From a virus (Duplodnaviria > Heunggongvirae > Uroviricota > Caudoviricetes): a DNA stretch of 64,000 nt. Positions 10,172-62,750 of this stretch are shown piece after piece. The notes beneath the pieces were generated by a model. It made no database searches, was not told the origin of the DNA, and saw only the letters and a program-made list of their open reading frames with translations. Location: IMG/VR virus record IMGVR_UViG_2609459792_000007; one strand, 5' to 3'. Numbering within the stretch: position 1 is the stretch's first letter; the number at the start of each line of letters is the position of its first letter. A program made the translations under genes and the position numbers.

Positions 10172-11731
10172 CTAATCTCGTTTCAGAACTCCAAAATCGA
10201 ATGCTCCATCAATAGGCAATACACCTTCTGCAAAGCCAGGTGTGGTGTCGATGATGTGTTTTCGCTCATAAGAGTGAGACAACAGGTATTTGTTGCTAAT
10301 GTCAATGAAATCAGTGATAAAACACACGTTTGCCTGATTTTTTTTGGCTCGTAAGCCACGACCGACACGCTGTCTCATTTCAACTTCTGCTTTCCCACCA
10401 CCAGCAAGAATGACCGCACCAACGCTTGGCACATCAACACCAACATCCAGAATAGTCGAGCCTATTAAAACATCTATTTCACCAGACGCTAAACTATTCA
10501 GCTTTGCTTGCCTTGTCGTCTGGTTAGATTCCCCATAGATGAAATCAACTTTAAGACCTGACTCCTTCATCATCTCCATCAGGATTTGCCCGTGGCGTTT
10601 AAGACGAACCAGAGTCATGCAGTTGAGTGAATGTTGCTTATAAAGCAATGCCTCGCGCACTATGGCCTCGTTACGTCCCAAATTATACACGATCCCCAAC
10701 TGATAAGCCTTTTGGTAGGCGGTGCCCATACCAACTCTAAAATTGAGGTGTTTGTTGGCAAGTTCGGCCTTGATTCTGGCCTCGTCTGGCTTGTAGGCAA
10801 CTTTATGATAAAGGAAGTACGGCTTTGCCAGAATGCCTCGATCAATCAGGTACTTTTCTGTGACTTTAATTTCAATTCGCCCGGCCACCGCCATCAGGCG
10901 CATGTTGGCTTCCGTCGAATCCTTCATGAACGGCGTGGCTGTAAGCGCCAGACGATAGTCTGCGTTCACACATAATCTGGCAATGTCATAGAAATTAGAG
11001 CCTGAAGACTCATGCGCTTCTTCCAGAATAAGCAGAGACACACTTGAAAGGAAGCGTTTCACCAACTCCCGACGTTTGAGGTGGTAGCTCTTTTTATCTG
11101 GTGTTGCATCGCGTGGTGGTTCTTCAAGGAAACTTGCCAGAGTTTGAACTGTAGCGACGTTGATATGTCGTGATACCTGGAACTCACCCGAGCCAATGAC
11201 TCCAACCTTTTGGCCCTTTAACCACGGTTCGCCATTTTCGGCGCGGTAGTCGATGGATCTCTGGAAGTTTTCGGCCATTTGAAACATCAGAACAGAGCGG
11301 GTTGTTAAAAATAATGTCATTCGACCGATACGTGCAGCTGCTTTGCAGGCAACGTTAGATTTCCCGCCACCAGTAGCGATCTGCGCAATCATCATTCCCT
11401 CTCGAACCAGTGTTTCCACAGTCTGATCCTGATACGCATAATCAGGATTGTATGGGAATGGGTTAACCGCCGGATTTGGTTTACCAAGCGCCGGGGCTTT
11501 GTCTTTGCGGATATGAACACATTTGATGCCCGCCTTGTTCAAGTTCGCCGCTACAGGCTTGGCAAAGCCAGCAGGGAACGAGTTTTTACTCCAGTTGAAC
11601 ATCGTGCTTGTGCCCTTCCAGTCGCCAGTCTCGACTTCGTAGCTCAACATTTGCTGCACCAGTTGCTTTACCTTGTCATCTGCGCCAGAAATAAGCGCAT
11701 TTACTGCGTTAGATACAATCCGAACAGTCAT
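10172..11731 (-). CDS. superfamily 2 DNA/RNA helicase
   Basis: Walker A-like TGGGKS, motif II LILEEAH (DEAH-type), C-terminal helicase-domain-like region. Confidence 0.75.
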   Translation of the reverse strand: MTVRIVSNAVNALISGADDKVKQLVQQMLSYEVETGDWKGTSTMFNWSKNSFPAGFAKPVAANLNKAGIKCVHIRKDKAPALGKPNPAVNPFPYNPDYAYQDQTVETLVREGMMIAQIATGGGKSNVACKAAARIGRMTLFLTTRSVLMFQMAENFQRSIDYRAENGEPWLKGQKVGVIGSGEFQVSRHINVATVQTLASFLEEPPRDATPDKKSYHLKRRELVKRFLSSVSLLILEEAHESSGSNFYDIARLCVNADYRLALTATPFMKDSTEANMRLMAVAGRIEIKVTEKYLIDRGILAKPYFLYHKVAYKPDEARIKAELANKHLNFRVGMGTAYQKAYQLGIVYNLGRNEAIVREALLYKQHSLNCMTLVRLKRHGQILMEMMKESGLKVDFIYGESNQTTRQAKLNSLASGEIDVLIGSTILDVGVDVPSVGAVILAGGGKAEVEMRQRVGRGLRAKKNQANVCFITDFIDISNKYLLSHSYERKHIIDTTPGFAEGVLPIDGAFDFGVLKRD

Positions 11732-11777
11732 AAACCTCTTTCCTTAGTGCCTTTTGTATGTTATTTGGCTATTATAA

Positions 11778-11796
11778 TAAGTAAGTGATTACTTAG
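11778..11796. promoter_or_regulatory. family B motif TAAGTAAGTGATTACTTAG
   Basis: Inverted TAAGTA / TACTTA in divergent intergenic region between helicase and ParB-like genes. Confidence 0.45.
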
Positions 11797-11813
11797 TGGA
11801 TTGTAGCAATAAA

Positions 11814-12494
11814 ATGGATGTAAAAATCACGATTTTGCAGGTTGATGTTGCCAACCTTCGCCCGAATACCTGGAACACCAATTCGGTTGGTGCGCAGAAT
11901 TTTGAAAAACTGAAAGGTTCTATCGAAAAATTGGGCTTTTTTAAGCCAATTTTGGCTCGTGAACTTGAAGATGGATTTTTTGAAATCCTCGGCGGCGAAC
12001 ATCGCTGGCGTGCTGCTATTGAGCAAGGAATTTCAACGGTTCCGGTGCTTTCTGTGGGCAAAATTAGCGATGTCGTAGCTAAACAGATGTCACTGGTGGA
12101 CAACGAGCGATACGGTGAAGACGACCAAATCGCATTGCAACGCTTCATTGAAGAAATTCAGTCAGAACTTGACTATCAACTGTCTGAAATCGCCCCGTAT
12201 GACGACGAAATCTCGATGGTTTTAGCAAAAGAGGCGGCAATCGACCTTGAAGCACTGGAGGCGTTGTCTCGTGGTAGTGATGAGCCTGTCGATACCGACA
12301 AACGAGAGAAAACCGAACGTGTGGGTGCGGAACATCAGACCATGCGCTTCAAAGTAACTTTCGATGCGTCAGATCGTGTTGCAGAAACCATAAAAAACAT
12401 CATCAAAGAGCAGGCTATTAACACCGGTAATGAAATGGAGAACGCTGGTGAGGCTCTGGTGTGGCTGGTCGACTACTACAAGGAGCGTATGTAA
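11814..12494 (+). CDS. ParB N-terminal domain (ParB/Srx-like) protein
   Basis: ILGGEHRWRAA motif typical of ParB-NTD; ATG 11814 (track start 11796). Confidence 0.7.
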   Translation: MDVKITILQVDVANLRPNTWNTNSVGAQNFEKLKGSIEKLGFFKPILARELEDGFFEILGGEHRWRAAIEQGISTVPVLSVGKISDVVAKQMSLVDNERYGEDDQIALQRFIEEIQSELDYQLSEIAPYDDEISMVLAKEAAIDLEALEALSRGSDEPVDTDKREKTERVGAEHQTMRFKVTFDASDRVAETIKNIIKEQAINTGNEMENAGEALVWLVDYYKERM

Positions 12495-13162
12495 TGACCA
12501 AAAAGTTTGAAATCGTATATCGCGACCCGGCAGATCTTATTCCCTATGAGATGAATGCCAAAAAGCATGATGAACAGCAGATCAGAGATCTGGCCGCAGC
12601 CATTAAAAAGCGCGGATTTGACCAGCCAATTACGGTCGATAAGAACGACGTAATTATTACTGGCCACGGCCGCCGTGAGGCTGCAATTTTTGCTGGACTT
12701 GAGCGCGTACCGGTTATTGTTCGCGATGATCTCAGTGATGACGAGGTTCGTGCGAAGCGCCTTGAAGATAACCGACTTGCCAGCATTGATTACGATGCAA
12801 TTAAGCTACAGAAAGAGCTTGAGTCGCTTGTTCTGGACGATATCGAGGTTTTCGGCTTTGAAGAGCGTGAGTTGAATGTTCTCGTTGGCAGTATGACAGA
12901 AGAAATGGACACCGACTCGCTAGTTATCGATCTTGGCGAAGAAACTAAACGACAGAAGGATGAACACACCGAGATCAGTCGTGAAGTTGCAGCGGAAGAA
13001 GTACGTGTTGTCGACGTATTGGGCTTTAAAACGCTCCCTGCTGGCTCTGCCATTGTTGTTGGTGATTTGCTTGCCCATATGGAAGAAATGACGGGAGAAA
13101 GCGGGGTAGACGCATTTGTGGCATATGCGGAGAAGATCTCTTCCGGGGAGATGGCTGCATGA
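12494..13162 (+). CDS. ParB N-terminal domain protein, second copy
   Basis: ITGHGRREAA motif; ATG 12494 overlaps upstream stop (TAATG); RBS aggagcg. Confidence 0.7.
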   Translation: MTKKFEIVYRDPADLIPYEMNAKKHDEQQIRDLAAAIKKRGFDQPITVDKNDVIITGHGRREAAIFAGLERVPVIVRDDLSDDEVRAKRLEDNRLASIDYDAIKLQKELESLVLDDIEVFGFEERELNVLVGSMTEEMDTDSLVIDLGEETKRQKDEHTEISREVAAEEVRVVDVLGFKTLPAGSAIVVGDLLAHMEEMTGESGVDAFVAYAEKISSGEMAA

Positions 13163-13824
13163 GCAAATACATCATCAACGTATCGTTTCAGACACGCGTA
13201 AATAAAACCACGCGCACGTTGGAAATCGCTGAGTCGTTCGGGCTTGGCCTGGACGAAAAAGAGTGGACGCTTTACGACAATCTGGAGCTGGAAGTGAAGC
13301 AGGGCGATGTGGTGTACATCACCGGCCAATCCGGTTCCGGCAAATCCGTTGTGCTGCGCGAGTTGCAACGACAGATGAAGGATGAAGGGCTGTCTGTAGC
13401 CTCCATCGATGATTTTACCTTCGATAATGAGGTTAACGTCATCGATCAGTTGGGCAAAACGACCAGTGATGCGCTTGGGTTGTTATCTATGGCTGGTCTG
13501 AACGATGCATATCTGTTTGTTCGCAAGCCTTCTGAAATGTCAGACGGCCAGAAATATCGTCTCAAGATTGCCAAACTGATTGAGTCAGGCGCTAAAGTAT
13601 GGGCTGCTGACGAGTTCGGCGCTGTTCTCGACCGTGTAACCGCTCAGGTTGTGGCGTCTAACCTCCAGCGTGCCGCGCGAAAGGTTGGTGCGACGGTAAT
13701 GGTGGCGACGACTCACGAAGACCTGAAGAACGCGCTGCGCCCGGATATGCAGATCACCAAGCACTACAAAGAACGCGTGAAGGTGGAATATCACAATGGT
13801 AGTCATGATGAGGTCCATTCATGA
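13159..13824 (+). CDS. minimal ABC-type ATPase
   Basis: Walker A GQSGSGKS, signature-like MSDGQKYRL, Walker B VWAADEFG, H-loop ATTHE. Confidence 0.7.
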   Translation: MSKYIINVSFQTRVNKTTRTLEIAESFGLGLDEKEWTLYDNLELEVKQGDVVYITGQSGSGKSVVLRELQRQMKDEGLSVASIDDFTFDNEVNVIDQLGKTTSDALGLLSMAGLNDAYLFVRKPSEMSDGQKYRLKIAKLIESGAKVWAADEFGAVLDRVTAQVVASNLQRAARKVGATVMVATTHEDLKNALRPDMQITKHYKERVKVEYHNGSHDEVHS

Positions 13825-14711
13825 CGGACATCATCATTAAACGCTACCGCCCTGAAGAGTTTCCGCGTCATCTGGACTTTCTGGAGCGAATGACTGTTAC
13901 AAAGGGAACTGTAGAGGACTGGCACGCTCTTAAGTCGCTTCACTACAAAACAGACGGCAAACCTTTCGCGCCAACTTACTATCGCTGCGAACTTGATGAC
14001 CGTCTGGTGGGCGTCGTGGTTATGGCTTACCCGAAACTACTGTTGGCACCTCGCCACCGCATGTTTCCTAAGTTGAAACCAACCACTAATACCACCGTGG
14101 CTAACCAGTACTGGGGTCGGTACGTGAATAACAACTTTGCGGTGATCAGTCGCTCAGTTGTGGATACTCAGTATCGTGGCGTAGGCGTCTCTTATCGAAT
14201 GATTAACCTGGTTAGCAGGATGCATGACCGGCCAATCATTGAGATCCAGTCCTCGATGAGCAAATACAATCCCTTCGCCATGAAAGCAGGGTTTAAGTTC
14301 ATCCGCCCTGAGCGACCGAAGAGCTATGAAAGTGCACTGCGTGTGTTCCAGCGCCATTTCCGCTCCGACCCGGGTGATAACGAGGCGATCGTCAAAGAGT
14401 TGTTCGCTATGAGCGAGTCTCGTCGTCGCCGTGCGCTGCGCGATTTGGTGGCGGACTACCATAAGAACAGTTCCCTGGCAAAAGCTGGGCGGAATCGTGG
14501 CACGACGATTCAGGACATTGCCGACAGTCTGGTGGACGAGGCCAGCATTGTGAAGCTGCTCAAGGACATTCACAACCTGAGCTTTACGTCTCCGTTGTAT
14601 GGTGTGTACCGAAACCCTGACTTTGGCCGTCGACTGCCTGACACGCTGCCACTGCTGGCATTCGACAAACAACCTTTGGATAAACCGTTAGAAATTGCTT
14701 TACCAGCATAA
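13821..14711 (+). CDS. hypothetical protein, possible acetyltransferase-like fold
   Basis: Translationally coupled to ATPase; segment VVDTQYRGVGVSYRMI resembles GNAT motif A (weak). Confidence 0.5.
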   Translation: MTDIIIKRYRPEEFPRHLDFLERMTVTKGTVEDWHALKSLHYKTDGKPFAPTYYRCELDDRLVGVVVMAYPKLLLAPRHRMFPKLKPTTNTTVANQYWGRYVNNNFAVISRSVVDTQYRGVGVSYRMINLVSRMHDRPIIEIQSSMSKYNPFAMKAGFKFIRPERPKSYESALRVFQRHFRSDPGDNEAIVKELFAMSESRRRRALRDLVADYHKNSSLAKAGRNRGTTIQDIADSLVDEASIVKLLKDIHNLSFTSPLYGVYRNPDFGRRLPDTLPLLAFDKQPLDKPLEIALPA

Positions 14712-14720
14712 GGATTTGCC

Positions 14721-14987
14721 ATGACGTTAACCGACAAACAAAAGGACATCATCAAAACGCTCAATCTCGGTTATGAGCGAGGTCATCTACTTGACCTGGA
14801 CGAATTGCTTGAAGTTTTGCCGTACAAGACAACCAAGCAAAGTATCCAGTTCTCAATTCGCGCTCTGATAAAAAAGGGGCTGGTGGAGAAAGGGCATACG
14901 CGCCAACGCAGTGACAATCGCTATCACCGCCGGACTCTTGGGTTAACCACTTTAGGTCGAGCCAAAGCGAAGTTACTGGTGATGTAA
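14721..14987 (+). CDS. putative winged-helix DNA-binding protein
   Basis: 88-aa basic protein; helix-turn-wing-like segment SIQFSIRALIKKGLVEKGH. Confidence 0.45.
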   Translation: MTLTDKQKDIIKTLNLGYERGHLLDLDELLEVLPYKTTKQSIQFSIRALIKKGLVEKGHTRQRSDNRYHRRTLGLTTLGRAKAKLLVM

Positions 14988-15011
14988 TCGGTCTGGGAGC
15001 TTATTTAAAGA

Positions 15012-15066
15012 CCTGCATCTGTATATATAAATAATAAGTAACTTATTAAATATATACGGAAGCAGG
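15012..15066. repeat. 55-bp imperfect palindromic element, copy 1
   Basis: cctgcatctgtatatataaataataagtaacttattaaatatatacggaagcagg; near-identical copy at 47817-47871. Confidence 0.8.
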
Positions 15067-15102
15067 CTTCGTAAGACATGCCAGACCTAATTAAACACCC
15101 CA

Positions 15103-15144
15103 GAAAACAAGTTGGTTAGCAGATGCAGTAAACAAGTTGTTTTA
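15103..15144. promoter_or_regulatory. two family A operator copies upstream of terminase operon
   Basis: gaaaacaagttggtta (15103-15118) and taaacaagttgtttta (15129-15144), then hairpin gagcgc-atggac-gcgctc. Confidence 0.5.
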
Positions 15145-15182
15145 GAGCGCATGGACGCGCTCTGTGTGTTTTAGAGGGATCT

Positions 15183-15815
15183 ATGACGGTCGAAAAAGAC
15201 GAGGTAAAAACTCGCCTGACACCAGCGGAGTGGGCCGAAGCTGAAGCCAAATGGACGTCAGGCGAATATACACTCTCAAAGCTGGAGGAAGAGTACGGCA
15301 TTCGTCGTGAAACACTCTCCAGACATTTCAAAAAGCGAGGATTAGAGAAAGGCGCGGACTCTGTTGGGAAGATGGTTCGTGAGTCTCTTAAATCTGACGC
15401 AGAGCTTCGCGCTAAAGCCCGTGCGGAAAAGATAGAAGAACGTCGTACACGTTATGACGGCTGGGCGTATGCGTTGGGGCAGATGGTGATGGTCGAAGTC
15501 ACTACGGCCAAACGTGAGGGTAAGCCTTTAGGGGCGATTGAGGATTCTCTCAAGAGCTTACAGAGAGCCAGTAATACCCTTGCAAAATGCTTTGAAGTTT
15601 CGTCCAAAGCATTGGGCATGGATCATGCGGAAAATGACGAGGAAGAAATTCCGAACCTGGTATTTGGTGAGCTTACGCCTTCCCAGGTGGCGAAATTACG
15701 TCAGGAAGACGACGAGCCTGAAATCATCGATGACGAATTGCTTGAGACGTTGGAAGAAGAAGCTCTAAGCGAATTTGATGCGACAGATGATGGAAGTGAA
15801 GGGGAGGACGAATAA
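15183..15815 (+). CDS. putative terminase small subunit
   Basis: HTH-like N-terminus, acidic C-terminus, immediately upstream of and overlapping large terminase. Confidence 0.55.
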   Translation: MTVEKDEVKTRLTPAEWAEAEAKWTSGEYTLSKLEEEYGIRRETLSRHFKKRGLEKGADSVGKMVRESLKSDAELRAKARAEKIEERRTRYDGWAYALGQMVMVEVTTAKREGKPLGAIEDSLKSLQRASNTLAKCFEVSSKALGMDHAENDEEEIPNLVFGELTPSQVAKLRQEDDEPEIIDDELLETLEEEALSEFDATDDGSEGEDE

Positions 15816-17071
15816 TGGCAATCCCGTCCTCGCTCAGTCTTGTGCAACTGCATTCTGGACAGATGAAAGTCTTCCAGTCTCCGCATCGATTTAAAGTTGT
15901 TTGTGCTGGTCGACGCTGGGGAAAATCCCGGTTGTCGATCTCCACTATTATTCGTGCGGCGGCAAAGGAAAAAAAGCAAAGAGTCTGGTATGTCGCTCCT
16001 ACTTACCAGATGGCTCGCCAGATTTTGTGGGACGATCTACAGGAAGTTCTGCCTCGTAAGTGGGTTAGGAAAAAGAACGACACCACGATGACAATCGTGT
16101 TGAAGAACGGTTCGGAGATCGCCCTCAAAGGTGCTGATAAGCCTGACACTCTGCGCGGCGTAGCGTTGCATTTTGTAGTGCTTGATGAATTTCAGGATAT
16201 GAAGGCTGACACCTGGTACAAGGTGTTACGACCTACTCTTTCATCGACACGCGGCGGTGCACTGATCATTGGTACGCCAAAAGGCTTCTCGGAATTTCAC
16301 AAACTGTGGACTATAGGCCAGAACGTAGAGCTGCAAAGAAAGGGACAGTGGAAGAGCTGGCAGTTTGTAACTGCCGATTCTCCGTTTGTACCTACGGCGG
16401 AAATTGAAGCTGCTAAGAACGATATGGACCCGAAATCGTTCGCTCAGGAGTACCTGGCGAGCTTTGAGAACATGTCCGGGCGCGTTTACTACCCGTTCGA
16501 TCGTAACGTGCATGTAAAACCGCTTCAGTTCAACCCTCGGTTGCCTATATGGGTAGGGCAGGACTTCAACATTGACCCGATGTCTTCAGTAATTTTGCAA
16601 CCTCAGCCAAATGGTGAGCTATGGGCAATTGATGAATTGGTGCTCTTTTCCTCTAACACGGCAGAGGTTTGTGATGAGCTTGAGAGACGCTTCTGGCGCT
16701 GGAAATCACAGATAACGGTATTTCCAGATCCGGCAGGTGCTTATCGCCAACATGCTCGCGGGGAGTCTGACGTCGACATATTCAAAGAGAAGGGATTCTT
16801 ACGTGTCGATTATTCGAAAAAGCACCCGCCAATTGCGGATCGTGTTAATGCTGTTAACCGAATGCTGATGACCGCATCTGGAGATATCCGGCTGTATATC
16901 GATCCGAAGTGCAAGCATTTGATTGATTCACTGGAAAAAGTCATCTACAAGCCTGGAACACGAGATATGGATAAGACAGGTGGCATTGAGCATAGTGCAG
17001 ACGCATTGGGCTATCCAGTACATCGTAGGTATCCAGTCAAAAACCGTGTTATTCTTGGTGGTTCTCGATAG
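15815..17071 (+). CDS. terminase large subunit
   Basis: ATPase motif VVCAGRRWGKS, Walker B-like VVLDEF, C-terminal nuclease-like region; precedes portal. Confidence 0.8.
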   Translation: MAIPSSLSLVQLHSGQMKVFQSPHRFKVVCAGRRWGKSRLSISTIIRAAAKEKKQRVWYVAPTYQMARQILWDDLQEVLPRKWVRKKNDTTMTIVLKNGSEIALKGADKPDTLRGVALHFVVLDEFQDMKADTWYKVLRPTLSSTRGGALIIGTPKGFSEFHKLWTIGQNVELQRKGQWKSWQFVTADSPFVPTAEIEAAKNDMDPKSFAQEYLASFENMSGRVYYPFDRNVHVKPLQFNPRLPIWVGQDFNIDPMSSVILQPQPNGELWAIDELVLFSSNTAEVCDELERRFWRWKSQITVFPDPAGAYRQHARGESDVDIFKEKGFLRVDYSKKHPPIADRVNAVNRMLMTASGDIRLYIDPKCKHLIDSLEKVIYKPGTRDMDKTGGIEHSADALGYPVHRRYPVKNRVILGGSR

Positions 17072-55681: not shown

Positions 55682-55756
55682 GATGGTGTAGCTCAGCGGT
55701 AGAGCAGTTGGCTGTTAACCAACTGGTCGGTGGTTCGAATCCACCCACCATCGCCA
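55682..55756 (+). tRNA. tRNA-Asn (anticodon GTT)
   Basis: Manual cloverleaf: acceptor gatggtg/caccatc, D arm gctc-agcggta-gagc, anticodon loop ctGTTaa, T loop ttcgaat. Confidence 0.85.
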
Positions 55757-55761
55757 ATTTA

Positions 55762-55848
55762 GGGGAGTTAGTCCGTAGAGGTAGCGGGGTAGACTGTAAA
55801 TCTACTGTCATGGAGACTCGGGTGGTTCGACTCCATCACTCCCCACCA
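55762..55848 (+). tRNA. tRNA-Tyr (anticodon GTA), long variable arm
   Basis: Acceptor ggggagt/actcccc, anticodon stem-loop gtaga-ctGTAaa-tctac, long variable arm, T loop ttcgact, 3' CCA. Confidence 0.7.
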
Positions 55849-55852
55849 AATT

Positions 55853-55928
55853 GCCGGTTTAGCTCAGTTGGTAGAGCGCCTGCCTTGTAAGCAGGATGTC
55901 AGCGGTTCGAGTCCGTTAACCGGCACCA
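55853..55928 (+). tRNA. tRNA-Thr (anticodon TGT)
   Basis: Acceptor gccggtt/aaccggc, D arm gctc-agttggta-gagc, anticodon loop ctTGTaa, T loop ttcgagt, 3' CCA. Confidence 0.8.
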
Positions 55929-56152
55929 ATACAACGATAAGATCATTACGGTTAATCGTCGTTCATGTGCACAATGACTGGTCGAAAGGTAGTGATCTTA
56001 CCGTTGTGGTGGATTCGCAGACTGATGCGATAGCTTTCTTGGATGTTAGGGAAATGCGGCCGCAAATCTTCCCTTTCGCGAGCGGTGATCGTCCGTAGTC
56101 CTAATTGGCTGCACCGTATGCCGGAGATTCAGTACCGGCCACCACAACGGCC

Positions 56153-56239
56153 GGAGAGTAGGGAGCATGGTGCTCAAGCGGTCTTGAAAACCGTCCCATT
56201 GCGCAAGCGATGATGGTTCGATTCCATTACTCTCCGCCA
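56153..56239 (+). tRNA. tRNA-Ser (anticodon TGA), long variable arm
   Basis: Acceptor ggagagt/actctcc, anticodon stem-loop gcggt-ctTGAaa-accgt, long variable arm, T loop ttcgatt, 3' CCA. Confidence 0.7.
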
Positions 56240-59310: not shown

Positions 59311-61419
59311 ATGTCTAAAAAACGTTCCATCAAAGAGGTTCAGGACTTCCGTGACAGTGTAAAACGAGTAGTCGCTCTCCTTTCAGGTAAAAACATCCCT
59401 GTTGCAGAACGAGGGGACGACGCTTATGTACGCTATAACGATGATGGAGAGCCAATTCTCGTAAACATCCCATCAATCCCGGATAACGCAACACCGGCAT
59501 TGATGAATGCTGTGCGCGGATTTCTCGATCATGAGGTTGCTCACATTTTGTTTACCGATATTCGTGTGTCCAACAAAATGAGAGAAAAAGGACGCGTTCC
59601 TTCCTGGTCGCTATGGAATGCCTTAGAAGACGTGTTCATCGAGCGAAAAATGGGTCAGGTCTTTAACGGAACAAGACGTAATCTGATGGCAACTCAGCGC
59701 CTTATAATCGAAAAAGTCTTTAAACCAAAGGCTTCAGAGGCTATTGCTTATTGTGGCAAAGATCAGCGCGCGCTTTTTCTAAACTTCTTTCTCTGTCCGG
59801 TTGTAAGAGCCTGGGATGGCCAAGCACCGTTCGTAGATTTCATGGATGAATATTGGCCTGTCATTGAGAAACCAATTTCATTATTAAAAGAACATGGTAT
59901 CGATGTGGCCGTGCGTAACATGTCTTGCACCGAGGATTGTGTAAAGGTGGCTGCGACCATAGCTAAGATCCTCAAAGACACTGAAAGTGAAAGCAAAGGT
60001 AAGGAGTCAGCTCCGGGAAAAACTTCCGATCCTTCAGACGCTGACCAGACGGATGCCTCTGGAGAAAACAATGAAGACAACGAAGATCATGAGACACCCT
60101 CATCGTTAGATAATCACAAATCTATTAAATCAGAGTCACATAGTAAGCACAAACATGATAATAACGACAGTGATGATTCAGATAATCCTGAATCATCAGA
60201 AACAATATTCGATGATACAGAAAATGATAAAGCGGTATCAGATTCTGATGCTTCTGATAACGCGGCGTCAGAATCATTAACCGCTGACCACGAAAAAAGA
60301 AAAACGACAGAAGACGGCTCTTCAGACATTCCAACTCCGTCAAAAATGAGTCTGGAAGAGGCTTTAGAGGAGTTGGATAGCATGGAAGATGAAGTCGGAG
60401 GCATGACAGAAGATGCGCTATCCGAAACGATTAAAAGCGAGTTAACAGAAAGCTCGAAAAGCGAATACAGGCCATACAATCGCTCATACGACTTCATCGG
60501 CTCGATTGATCAGGCAGAAGCCCATATCAAACGGCTTATTAAAACATTCTCCGATATTGATTTAGGTGGATATCCAATCAGCCGTTATCGCATCGTTCCT
60601 GAAGGCAACCAACTCTTCGACAAATATATTGAAAAGCACCTTTCGTCAGGTGTTTCGTCGACGCTGGCAAAAGACCTGGAACGTGCAATAGCAAGCAGAA
60701 ACAGAGTTCAGTTTATACCTGGCCAGCGTCGGGGGCGCATTCATGGTTCAAGTATCTACAGATTAACAATGAATGATGATCGCGTGTTTCGTAAAAAAGA
60801 AGAATCTAAAGCCGTTAACGCCTGTGTTCAACAAGTGATTGATTTATCGGGTTCAATGAGTGGCGAAACGATAAAACTAGCTCTTGCAAGTGCATATACC
60901 ATCGCCGATGCACTTGATCGAATAAATGTTCCCAACATTATCACCGGCTTCACTACATTTGGCAGTCATATGGCAGCAGGAGAACTTAAGGCTATCAAAT
61001 ATGAGTTCTCTCGCTTTGAATCTTTAATGCTACCTATCATCAAAAATTGGAATGAAAAAGCAAATTCTCGCGAAGTTCGCTCACGTATGGGGTGCGTAGG
61101 CTACACATTCCCACTTCTTAATAACGTGGATGGTGAAAGCATAGCCAGCCTTGCATCGTTATTTTCCGGTCGCTTGGAGGACAGGAAGATCATGCTTGTT
61201 CTGAGCGATGGCGCGCCGTGGGCTGTTGGGAGAGGTTTTGACGCCCATTTGCGTTCGGTTACGAAGCAAATTGAAACGCAGACTGACATTGATTTGATGG
61301 CAATTGGCATCATGACTGATGCACCGGAGAGATTTTACGCAAATCATGCCCTGGTAACTAGTGTTGATAGTCTTGGTTCATCTGTAGTTACTGAACTATC
61401 TCGTATCATTTTGAAGTAA
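59311..61419 (+). CDS. CobT-like von Willebrand factor A domain protein with acidic linker
   Basis: MIDAS-like motif VIDLSGSMSG; long D/E/S-rich low-complexity region. Confidence 0.65.
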   Translation: MSKKRSIKEVQDFRDSVKRVVALLSGKNIPVAERGDDAYVRYNDDGEPILVNIPSIPDNATPALMNAVRGFLDHEVAHILFTDIRVSNKMREKGRVPSWSLWNALEDVFIERKMGQVFNGTRRNLMATQRLIIEKVFKPKASEAIAYCGKDQRALFLNFFLCPVVRAWDGQAPFVDFMDEYWPVIEKPISLLKEHGIDVAVRNMSCTEDCVKVAATIAKILKDTESESKGKESAPGKTSDPSDADQTDASGENNEDNEDHETPSSLDNHKSIKSESHSKHKHDNNDSDDSDNPESSETIFDDTENDKAVSDSDASDNAASESLTADHEKRKTTEDGSSDIPTPSKMSLEEALEELDSMEDEVGGMTEDALSETIKSELTESSKSEYRPYNRSYDFIGSIDQAEAHIKRLIKTFSDIDLGGYPISRYRIVPEGNQLFDKYIEKHLSSGVSSTLAKDLERAIASRNRVQFIPGQRRGRIHGSSIYRLTMNDDRVFRKKEESKAVNACVQQVIDLSGSMSGETIKLALASAYTIADALDRINVPNIITGFTTFGSHMAAGELKAIKYEFSRFESLMLPIIKNWNEKANSREVRSRMGCVGYTFPLLNNVDGESIASLASLFSGRLEDRKIMLVLSDGAPWAVGRGFDAHLRSVTKQIETQTDIDLMAIGIMTDAPERFYANHALVTSVDSLGSSVVTELSRIILK

Positions 61420-61432
61420 TTAAAACAGCCTT

Positions 61433-61457
61433 AATGATAAGTAACTACTTACCATAG
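61433..61457. promoter_or_regulatory. family B motif GATAAGTAACTAC
   Basis: Between the CobT-like and CobS-like genes. Confidence 0.45.
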
Positions 61458-61514
61458 TTAATGGTATATTTATATAAGAACTTGAACGCTCATTAGAGAA
61501 CAAAGGAAAAGCGC

Positions 61515-62750
61515 ATGACTACTACTGCACTGCAAAATGATAAAAATCCTTCTGATTACCTTGTTTGCAAGTGGTGCGGCAAATCATTTCACTATTTTAA
61601 GTCCCATGTAGCCAATGGTAATTGCGAGGGCATTCCTGAGTCAGTAAAAGATGCCGATCCTGACACCGTACTGAAAATGTACACAACGCAGTTTCCAGAT
61701 GAACCAACGCTATCGAAAAAGGCACTTGATGCAATTCAAGCTAAACGTGCCGAGCAAAAAAGCGAAATGGCGAAATCTTCTGGCTTGACCAGTAGCCCAG
61801 GCTACACAGGCACAGTTGAGTACAAGACAGATCTGGTCGCAGCTCACGAACTGCTAAACGTAACGGTGGAAGAACTCGGAACAAAACGTGGGACGCCGCT
61901 CATGGTTAGCGTCAACGTCAATACGCCGTATCCAGAGTTCGTTCCAGAAGTGAAGAAGGGCTACGTATATGGCGACTTCGAACTTATCAAAGATATTTTC
62001 ATGATGCTTGAACTTGGCATACCTGGCTATTTGTGGGGTCATGCAGGAACAGGCAAATCGTCATTGCCTACACAGCTATGTGCTTTGCTCAATCGTCCGT
62101 TGATCCGTGCCCAACATACAGCATCAATGGAAGAGGCACATGTTACGGGGCAAATTCTGGCGCGTGATGGCTCTACGTATTTCGAGCCTGGCTTGCTTGC
62201 GCTCGCAATGAAGCATGGCTGGGTTTACCTCGCGGATGAATACGACTTTGCGTTTCCACAAATTCTTGGCGTGTATCAGCCAGTGCTGGAAGGTGAGGCG
62301 TTGGTCATCAAAGAGGCAACTCCAGAATGGCGTCGCATTACTCCGCATGAACGGTTTGCTTTCATTGGCACTGGCAACACAAACGGTTCTGGTGATGAAA
62401 CCGGCTTGTACCAGGGTACAAACATCCAGAACGCCGCGAACTTTTCACGTTTTGGCATCGTTTCGAATGTGAAATACATGAGCAAAGAGGCAGAGATCAA
62501 CATGTTGATAAATGCCGGTATCGTGGATGAATACGCAGAAAAGATGGTTAAGTTTGCCGGTATCGTTCGCGATGGATACGAAGAACACCTTATCAGTCAG
62601 CCAATTGGCCCTCGTGAACTTTTGTTGTCGGCCAAGATTGGAATGATGCGAGGCGACTTTGTGACAGGTATTGAGCGTTCTTTCATTAACAAACTCCCTT
62701 CAGCTTCTGCACAAGCGGCTCGTGAAGTTGTTCAAAAAATATTTGGTTAA
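61515..62750 (+). CDS. CobS/MoxR-like AAA+ ATPase
   Basis: Walker A GHAGTGKSS, Walker B VYLADEYD. Confidence 0.7.
   Translation: MTTTALQNDKNPSDYLVCKWCGKSFHYFKSHVANGNCEGIPESVKDADPDTVLKMYTTQFPDEPTLSKKALDAIQAKRAEQKSEMAKSSGLTSSPGYTGTVEYKTDLVAAHELLNVTVEELGTKRGTPLMVSVNVNTPYPEFVPEVKKGYVYGDFELIKDIFMMLELGIPGYLWGHAGTGKSSLPTQLCALLNRPLIRAQHTASMEEAHVTGQILARDGSTYFEPGLLALAMKHGWVYLADEYDFAFPQILGVYQPVLEGEALVIKEATPEWRRITPHERFAFIGTGNTNGSGDETGLYQGTNIQNAANFSRFGIVSNVKYMSKEAEINMLINAGIVDEYAEKMVKFAGIVRDGYEEHLISQPIGPRELLLSAKIGMMRGDFVTGIERSFINKLPSASAQAAREVVQKIFG

Follow-up and report, generated by a model that had tools for sequence, protein, structure and literature searches.

What is the role of two genes for ParB-domain proteins, a gene for an ABC-type ATPase and a gene for a 296-amino-acid (aa) partner protein that follow one another closely ahead of the terminase genes of a tailed virus? 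We addressed this question for positions 11814-14711 of a 64,000-nucleotide (nt) stretch of DNA, referred to below as the window, from IMG/VR record IMGVR_UViG_2609459792_000007 (Caudoviricetes). From sequence comparisons we show that the parts of this cassette are real and have intact catalytic motifs, that they are coupled by synteny and gene fusion, and that they lie next to, or are fused with, genes for replication and packaging. The reading that we favour, while giving it somewhat less than an even chance of being right, is that the cassette encodes a DNA acyltransferase that is driven by ATP, is assisted by ParB proteins and acts after replication and before packaging.

The region 11700-15900 comes from an SSU5-type Escherichia coli phage-plasmid. 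It is 98-99% identical to Escherichia phages CMS-2020a, PhiR41_1 and Cyrano, 85% identical to Salmonella phage SSU5 and ~80% identical to Klebsiella relatives. The four open reading frames (ORFs) listed in a preliminary description of the window (two for ParB N-domain proteins, one for a 221-aa ABC ATPase and one for the 296-aa protein) were reproduced with exactly the same coordinates. The three junctions between them (TAATG, ATGA and ATGA) are overlaps of 1, 4 and 4 nt, and the four genes are therefore translationally coupled. All four proteins have PHROG family matches with E-values from 1e-59 to 1e-165; they are thus products of genuine conserved genes and not of chance ORFs.

Protein domains encoded by the cassette

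The 296-aa protein, for which the preliminary description had guessed an acetyltransferase-like motif, does have the alpha/beta fold of GNAT enzymes. The GNAT domain (residues ~20-165) is followed by a helical domain and by a C-terminal hairpin with the family motif Y-G-x-Y-x-N-P; the protein is basic (isoelectric point, pI, 9.8). The coenzyme A (CoA) motif expected after strand 4 (Q/R-x-x-G-x-G/A) was found as R119-G-V-G122-V-S124; residues R119 and G122 are invariant in alignment A1, as are their counterparts R320 and G323 in the fused family described below (alignment A2). The Pfam GNAT models were not passed by the window protein (Acetyltransf_10 reached 14.4 bits against a gathering cut-off of 23.6), and NCBIfam and PADLOC gave no match for it. 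Homologues that do pass Pfam GNAT models are Orf25 of Lactococcus phage P335 (Acetyltransf_1, 31.1 against a cut-off of 20.7) and P0238. A sequence search against the PDB returned noise only (AlkD, E ~1). Among the top structural neighbours is Mom of phage Mu; the Mom family gave no match in Pfam, PHROGs or NCBIfam, and the resemblance is at the fold level only.

The ABC ATPase matches Pfam ABC_tran (PF00005) with 50.1 bits (cut-off 25). Its catalytic motifs are complete: Walker A (GQSGSGKS, G56-K62-S63), signature S128-D-G-Q131, Walker B (AADE, D151-E152) and H-loop H186, all invariant or near-invariant across 40 fused homologues (alignment A2). The protein is 52-64% identical across the lineage, a degree of conservation similar to that of the large terminase, TerL (54-65%). 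No permease was found in the operon, where the neighbours are ParB, GNAT and winged-helix (wHTH) proteins and no dedicated transmembrane prediction was made, nor was a permease fusion found among the sampled ABC homologues, whose fusion partners are GNAT, ParB or polymerases.

Both ParB proteins pass the Pfam ParB_N model (PF02195; 50.0 bits for ParB1 and 35.2 bits for ParB2, cut-off 26.3), and they form two distinct orthologous lines. In 16 orthologues of ParB1 (alignment A3), residues N21, N23, N29, K32 and R49 and the arginine box G60-G61-x-H63-R64 are invariant; among 16 orthologues of ParB2 (alignment A4), G57-H-G-R60 is invariant, so that each protein has an arginine box. Profiles of ParB1 and ParB2 matched only the N-domains of Spo0J, Noc and ParB, along with sulfiredoxin structures. 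Neither protein has an HTH_ParB or other DNA-binding Pfam match at E<=0.1. Both are acidic (pI 4.55 for ParB1 and 4.53 for ParB2), especially in their C-terminal halves (pI ~4.2).

ParB2 matches, in addition, phrog_498 'DNA methyltransferase' (E 1.7e-31) and PADLOC MTase_II (E 2.9e-17). As judged by these matches, ParB2 belongs to the ParB subtype that in other proteins is fused to DNA N6/N4 methyltransferases, and so the GNAT protein would in a sense take the place of the amine-modifying DNA enzyme.

Relatives of these proteins are annotated 'chromosome partitioning protein ParB' and 'ABC transporter ATP-binding protein'. Taken literally, such labels, together with the Pfam ParB_N and ABC_tran matches, would describe a plasmid-partition ParB next to a transporter subunit. 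What the window proteins share with ParABS systems is the N-terminal ParB/Srx domain with its arginine box; they lack the helix-turn-helix (HTH), parS-binding part and the C-terminal dimerisation domain, and the adjacent ATPase is of the ABC type rather than a ParA. The operon has neither a ParA nor a membrane subunit gene; in Cyrano (99% identical) ParA is annotated elsewhere (CYRAN_28). Moreover, the cassette is found in phages described as lytic (LE3/LE4, by the title of the paper) and in integrated archaeal proviruses, and the ABC domain is fused to GNAT rather than to permease domains. With no HTH, no operon ParA, no permease and a GNAT fusion, the partition and transporter reading is effectively refuted, and we give it hardly any credence.

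Synteny and gene fusion

To characterize the linkage, we used a sample of 30 loci from species-representative genomes and metagenomes with hosts among gamma-, alpha- and beta-proteobacteria (including Xenorhabdus, Morganella, Halomonas, Acinetobacter, Sphingomonas, Rhizobiales, Paracoccus, Magnetospirillum and Paraburkholderia). Wherever the contig allows, the same order was seen in 30 out of 30 loci: a helicase gene on the minus strand, then ParB1, ParB2, ABC, a stretch of 0 to ~1.2 kb with small genes, GNAT, in many cases the wHTH gene, the gene for a 210-aa protein, TerL and portal. The lowest identities across this sample are 33-44% for the ParB proteins, 37-45% for GNAT and 52-64% for ABC. 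The helicase flanks the cassette in 29 of the 30 loci, and the remaining locus (L110) ends upstream of the ABC gene. A tblastn search placed the wHTH gene directly 3' of the GNAT gene in 21/30 loci; it is the usual fifth member of the cassette.

A first scan of viral contigs with alignment A1 returned near-identical SSU5-like loci only and was uninformative on distant co-occurrence. We then searched a GNAT profile against 1.8 billion representative proteins. This search produced 889 relatives, many of them 440-500 aa long with the GNAT part at residues ~200-480; Pfam and PHROG scans identified these long relatives as single-chain ABC-GNAT fusions. The fused family has more than 2593 members and conserves the same residues as the split family; its organism-named members are mostly archaeal metagenome-assembled genomes (MAGs; Bathyarchaeia, Nitrososphaerota).

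Larger fusions were detected as well. Five proteins are ParB-ABC-GNAT triple fusions (P0194, P0214, P0217, P0218 and P0267), with ParB domains that match PHROGs 620 and 498, as ParB2 does. In others, ABC-GNAT is joined to a PolB (P0207, present on 24+ contigs, and P0179), to UDG and PolA (ABC-GNAT-UDG-PolA, L164), to a DnaA-like ATPase (P0202) or to TFIIB (P0154). One more protein (P0164, 847 aa, from a JGI metagenome) carries an intein with Hint and LAGLIDADG domains within its ABC ATPase domain.

Synteny, gene fusion and recurrence in unrelated viruses (see the next section) are three independent lines by which the linkage is real, and we conclude from them that the four-gene linkage is functional, not incidental. 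The preliminary description had treated the genes as one coherent module and had named the lack of a conserved four-gene linkage as the observation that would speak against it. We found the opposite: the linkage is very strong, holding in 30/30 loci down to 37-45% identity and extending to ABC-GNAT and ParB-ABC-GNAT fusions and to repeated occurrence beside terminases.

Two further observations concern relatives of the cassette. The ABC-GNAT junction, a 4-nt overlap in the window (13824/13821), is an insertion hot spot in relatives. Klebsiella relatives have here an extra gene for a 183-aa protein with no Pfam match (L001:6086-6637); elsewhere the insertions reach ~1.2 kb of small genes (L003:6961-7999; L105:5767-7001), where L003 has genes for Phage_gp49_66 and RyR-domain proteins and Rhizobium phages have genes whose annotation reads DUF2829-domain. 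Also, loci L085, L087 and L088 are near-identical SSU5-like elements (GNAT identity 90-99%) from assemblies labelled Yersinia pestis NCTC5923, 'Bacillota bacterium' MAG and 'Candidatus Fimivivens' MAG; the latter two assignments are probably binning artefacts of an enterobacterial phage-plasmid.

Recurrence beside terminase and replication genes

The order ParB, ABC and GNAT (separate or fused), TerS (small terminase, not in all cases), TerL and portal recurs in several unrelated viral lineages. In Lactococcus phage P335 the module consists of three separate genes (Orf23-25), as in the window. In Streptococcus phage phiNIH1.1 we found an unannotated ORF for a 164-aa GNAT (L204:4558-5049, positions ~15890-16381 of the record; E 3e-12) that overlaps the 3' end of an 'ABC transporter' gene and is followed by the ASCH-domain gene p26. 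The cassette is situated upstream of terminases in Pasteurella phage Pmp13 and Leptospira phage LE4 too, and in L117, from a metagenomic phage whose portal belongs to a different family, a ParB/ABC/GNAT cassette precedes the terminase. Thus, the cassette, first described as non-standard, is in fact widespread upstream of or beside terminase genes.

With the fused-family alignment we retrieved 78 further viral loci. A TerL homologue is located immediately upstream of the module in 42 of them and within three genes in 51. In archaeal proviruses the ABC-GNAT gene directly follows TerL and overlaps it by a few bases. No ParB turned up in a hidden Markov model search around this TerL-coupled ABC-GNAT clade (L123-L202), which shows that a ParB partner is not obligatory.

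In the same IMG/VR loci (L123-L202), the contig or provirus ends less than 7 kb downstream of the ABC-GNAT gene in 67 out of 80 cases, in ~31 of these less than 600 nt downstream, while the nearest upstream end is 1349 nt away; the (pro)virus typically ends with the ABC-GNAT gene, right after TerL. The asymmetry probably marks the edge of a provirus and not the physical end of a genome.

The proximity to terminases raises the possibility that the module is an accessory for packaging or concatemer processing that cooperates with the terminase. The ParB domains would be nicking nucleases regulated by nucleoside triphosphates (NTPs) or binders of the pac region; the ABC-GNAT pair would acetylate TerS, TerL, portal or another factor, or would sense acetyl-CoA, and thereby time or license packaging. 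The position immediately upstream of TerS/TerL in SSU5-like phages, P335, phiNIH1.1, Pmp13, LE4 and L117, the frequent adjacency to TerL among the 78 loci, the gene overlap in archaeal proviruses and the TerL-like conservation of the ABC protein all fit this proposal, and ParB-family domains can act as nicking nucleases or NTPases (PMC5512222). On the other hand, the fusions to PolA, PolB and a DnaA-like ATPase link the module to replication, and other copies sit in replication modules, some far from any terminase. In Arthrobacter phage EastWest, ParB followed by ABC-GNAT adjoins the gene for the DNA polymerase III beta clamp, with no terminase within the stretch read. The window already encodes a probable TerS. 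The kinds of genes found near the module in other lineages (see below) indicate small-group chemistry over mechanics. We know of no GNAT in any known packaging system. We consider a packaging role unlikely.

Genes next to the module in other lineages are of several kinds. Copies adjoin DNA methyltransferases in L121. A Formyl_trans_N (PF00551) gene lies immediately 3' of ABC-GNAT in three unrelated phages (Burkholderia phage phiE255 gp30, Porphyromonas phage009a and Gordonia phage BiggityBass gene 3, the last annotated 'tRNA-methyltransferase'; L213:4589-5203, L215:4586-5059 and L203:1823-2473). This arrangement suggests a two-step acyl/formyl modification in those lineages. An Amidoligase_2 gene was found downstream of the module in L123 and L134. 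The ParB annotation of BiggityBass gene 1 was not confirmed at E<=0.01.

Prediction of DNA acylation

A pair of an ABC ATPase and a GNAT was predicted to acylate a DNA base by Aravind's group in 2013 (Iyer, Zhang, Burroughs and Aravind, NAR 41:7635) and again in 2021 (Iyer et al., Viruses 13:63; PMC7824862); the 2021 paper gives phage pT24 as an exemplar and cites the 2013 article for the prediction. The window module would be a member of this predicted system. The two coupled domains are the same and homologous: the window GNAT profile retrieves hundreds of ABC-GNAT fusions, and one fused homologue (P0185) matches BPT24_038 of Tenacibaculum phage pT24 with E 8e-14, in the ABC part only. The window differs in that ABC and GNAT are split into two overlapping genes and are preceded by two distinct ParB paralogues. 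Hence the kind of system is already known. The computational prediction is more than 10 years old, the genes already stand in GenBank, and relatives have labels such as COG2401 / 'MK0520' or 'ABC-type ATPase with predicted acetyltransferase domain' (JGI, GenBank). The literature search yielded no experimental study of the ABC-GNAT module; the system is a predicted one. Our additions, which may partly overlap the 2013 article, are the split architecture with two ParB genes in the SSU5 lineage, the fusions of ParB-ABC-GNAT and those with polymerases, the observation that the module is systematically associated with TerL, also in archaeal proviruses, and the formyltransferase, amidoligase and ASCH neighbours.

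Three functions had been offered for the cassette in the preliminary description: DNA modification, anti-defence or packaging. The first one is best supported, and it agrees with the published prediction. We favour DNA acylation because every fusion partner binds or processes DNA, because the ParB subtype goes with DNA amine-methyltransferases and because both the GNAT and its wHTH companion have a basic pI; neighbours of the formyltransferase, amidoligase and ASCH kinds are as expected of a base-modification pathway.

The proposed mechanism is as follows. The four genes would make one machine, with a catalytic core formed by a GNAT acyl-CoA transferase joined to the ABC ATPase (split here and a single chain in most relatives) and assisted by the two ParB/Srx N-domain proteins. 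ParB2 would be the canonical partner of ABC-GNAT and ParB1 a lineage-specific paralogue. The complex would act on replicated phage DNA shortly ahead of packaging: ATP-driven dimerisation of the ABC heads may clamp or open the duplex, the NTP-binding ParB domains may load or activate the enzyme, and the basic GNAT subunit would take an acetyl group, or a larger group of the acyl or aminoacyl kind, from a CoA thioester and move it to an exocyclic amine of a base, the candidate acceptors being, for example, N4 of C or N6 of A. The acyl mark could shield the incoming genome from host nucleases. That this would be the first DNA acyltransferase for canonical bases, powered by ATP, loaded by ParB and producing N4-acyl-cytosine or N6-acyl-adenine just before packaging, with acetyl as the acyl group or an aminoacyl group that is later formylated in some lineages, seems possible and yet doubtful to us.

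Separate elements of the scheme have parallels in characterized systems. DpdB of the Dpd 7-deazaguanine system is a ParB-domain partner of a DNA-modifying enzyme. DNA T-dioxygenases of clade E are base modifiers that strictly require phage ParB-like proteins for activity, and those genes co-occur with terminases (bioRxiv 10.1101/2025.08.14.668559, now PNAS). Compared with such ParB-served modifiers, the window enzyme consists of GNAT and ABC and is accompanied by two ParB paralogues with strongly acidic C-terminal halves. The relation to ParB-methyltransferase fusions lies in the match of ParB2 to their ParB domain (phrog_498, PADLOC MTase_II). ASCH proteins are N4-acylcytosine amidohydrolases (PMC6972931).

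Two phage GNATs that act on DNA serve as precedents. Mom of phage Mu is a stand-alone GNAT-fold enzyme of ~230 aa that transfers acyl/carbamoylmethyl to N6 of adenine in DNA. Unlike the window protein it has no ATPase or ParB partner; no sequence-level homology was detected between the two, and the window GNAT has an extra C-terminal domain of ~130 aa with an invariant motif of its own. The other, gp48 of phage PaMx11, acetylates a base within DNA, namely 5-aminomethyl-dU in polymeric DNA, with experimental support (PMC8989533). It is likewise stand-alone, and needs a hypermodified thymidine pre-installed by the 5-hydroxymethyldeoxyuridine (5-hmdU) pathway; no 5-hmdU kinase or aGPT-Pplase was found in the cassette or among the annotated genes in the part of Cyrano that was read.

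Several points weigh against DNA acylation. The literature yielded no chemical evidence of modified bases in SSU5-like phages. No cognate restriction partner was seen, and PADLOC, silent on the GNAT protein, gave only generic matches (MTase_II for the ParB domain and the P-loops of mad3/PtuA for the ABC domain). ParB1 and ParB2 are acidic and have no recognisable DNA-binding domain. The ABC domain is closer in sequence to transporter-type nucleotide-binding domains than to SMC or MutS. The ASCH, formyltransferase and amidoligase neighbours belong to other lineages, with none in the cassette of the window. Finally, the large archaeal clade of fused proteins, without ParB nearby and translationally coupled to TerL, equally fits a packaging role.

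If DNA acylation is correct, acylated ordinary bases would add a chemically new class to the known modifications of phage genomes, with a bearing on restriction evasion, on host range in phage therapy and possibly on sequencing bias, and the enzymes could be used for DNA labelling. For canonical bases in particular, a whole class of DNA modification would have been missed in thousands of bacterial and archaeal tailed viruses. The module is abundant, with more than 2500 fused homologues, and its carriers include archaeal proviruses as well as phages from five or more bacterial phyla. Even with a protein or packaging target, it would be new biology that terminases and polymerases have so deeply conserved a ParB-ABC-GNAT partner. 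The version of the module in the window is carried by E. coli phage-plasmids, and the 2013 prediction is therefore directly testable; the close relative PhiR41_1 lists K-12 MG1655 as host.

Protein and RNA as alternative substrates

A GNAT encoded by a phage could as well be directed at a host protein, as is AcrVA5, a phage GNAT that acetylates a host protein. The module would then serve host takeover or anti-defence, with ABC and ParB targeting the acetyltransferase on DNA. Its substrate might be RNA polymerase, a nucleoid protein, an effector of a defence system or a nuclease, RecBCD for instance; DNA-associated fusion partners also suit action on DNA-bound proteins. Rac of phiKMV-like phages is another GNAT that acetylates a host protein (PMC7824862). 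Yet the cassette is conserved in the manner of core genes over a deep divergence that includes archaeal viruses, unlike fast-evolving anti-defence genes, and it has no match among PADLOC or anti-defence families. The intein in the ABC domain of P0164 speaks in the same direction; inteins mostly reside in essential DNA-metabolism proteins. The position in a late operon suits early takeover poorly. We regard both this reading and the list of targets envisaged for it as quite unlikely.

A different substrate would be RNA. TmcA and NAT10, which PMC8989533 cites, are GNAT enzymes that depend on ATP, and the module shares their logic of combining an NTPase with a GNAT to acetylate a base-paired or buried exocyclic amine. 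The ATPase would in this case deliver a cytidine of tRNA or rRNA, for instance of phage tRNAs, to the GNAT for conversion to N4-acetylcytidine (ac4C). The window does carry tRNA genes (55682-56239), and the ASCH neighbour of one lineage might be relevant since ASCH proteins erase tRNA ac4C (bioRxiv 10.64898/2026.02.27.708502). The ATPases are of different classes, though: ABC in the window, a RecD-like helicase in TmcA/NAT10, which act on RNA and also contain DUF1726 and a tRNA-binding domain. The structural matches listed for the window GNAT include no chain of TmcA or NAT10. The fusion partners (ParB, PolA, PolB, DnaA-like ATPase and TFIIB) are all DNA-binding or DNA-processing, and many carriers of the module, such as P335 and LE4, are small phages. 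An RNA acetyltransferase is thus highly improbable in our view.

The tRNA genes of the window are four in number (Asn-GTT, Tyr-GTA, Thr-TGT and Ser-TGA); the Cyrano record annotates three (Asn, Thr and Ser).

Features of the locus and its flanks

Coordinates of the cassette, its motifs and the flanking genes are given in Table 1. The wHTH protein has weak matches to wHTH domains of the LexA/Lrs14 type and a pI of 10.2. The spacer between the cassette and the terminase genes contains an AT-rich imperfect palindrome (~15019-15058) and a terminator-like hairpin (15143-15164). A scan of 11600-15900 for promoters and terminators gave a number of matches not above that in shuffled controls, and the operon boundaries thus remain inferred.

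Table 1. Genes, motifs and intergenic features in and around the cassette (window coordinates)
Feature	Position	Strand	Basis
DEAD/ResIII helicase, divergent from cassette	10172-11731	-	Pfam
ParB1, 226 aa, phrog_723	11814-12494	+	ORF list; Pfam ParB_N; PHROG E 1e-78
ParB1 arginine box G60-G-E-H-R64 (GGEHR)	11991-12005	+	Invariant columns, alignment A3
ParB2, 222 aa, phrog_930	12494-13162	+	ORF list; Pfam ParB_N; PHROG E 1e-112
ParB2 arginine box G57-H-G-R-R61 (GHGRR)	12662-12676	+	Invariant columns, alignment A4
Soluble ABC-type ATPase, 221 aa, phrog_293	13159-13824	+	ORF list; Pfam ABC_tran; motifs
Predicted GNAT-fold acyltransferase, 296 aa, phrog_886	13821-14711	+	
Acyl-CoA pyrophosphate-binding motif R119-G-V-G-V-S124 (R-x-x-G-x-A/G/S)	14175-14192	+	Alignment A1
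Winged-helix (wHTH) protein, 88 aa, basic, phrog_900	14721-14987	+	PHROG E 2e-45
Spacer between cassette and terminase genes, 195 bp	14988-15182	none	Sequence
Acidic DNA-binding protein, 210 aa, phrog_867, probable small terminase (inferred)	starts 15183	+	PHROG
Large terminase (TerL)	15815-17071	+	Pfam Terminase_6N/6C; portal gene next

The GenBank records of SSU5 and Cyrano both open at a position corresponding to ~15050, inside the spacer; this could be the annotator's choice or a site close to pac or cos.

Two annotations in Cyrano were checked separately. CYRAN_64 (OV696614.1, 62432-63076), annotated 'ASCH RNA-binding domain', has no Pfam match and was not used as evidence. CYRAN_75 (74621-75265) is annotated 'ABC transporter ATP-binding protein'; the scanned part, the first 126 residues, resembles a small P-loop kinase-type protein (AAA_28) more than a second ABC ATPase. 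Both genes lie outside the window.

Farther along the window, region 59311-62750 carries cobalamin-related genes typical of SSU5-like elements. By the Cyrano annotation, transferred to window coordinates by matching ORF lengths, they encode a 702-aa dimethylbenzimidazole phosphoribosyltransferase-like protein and a cobalamin synthase.

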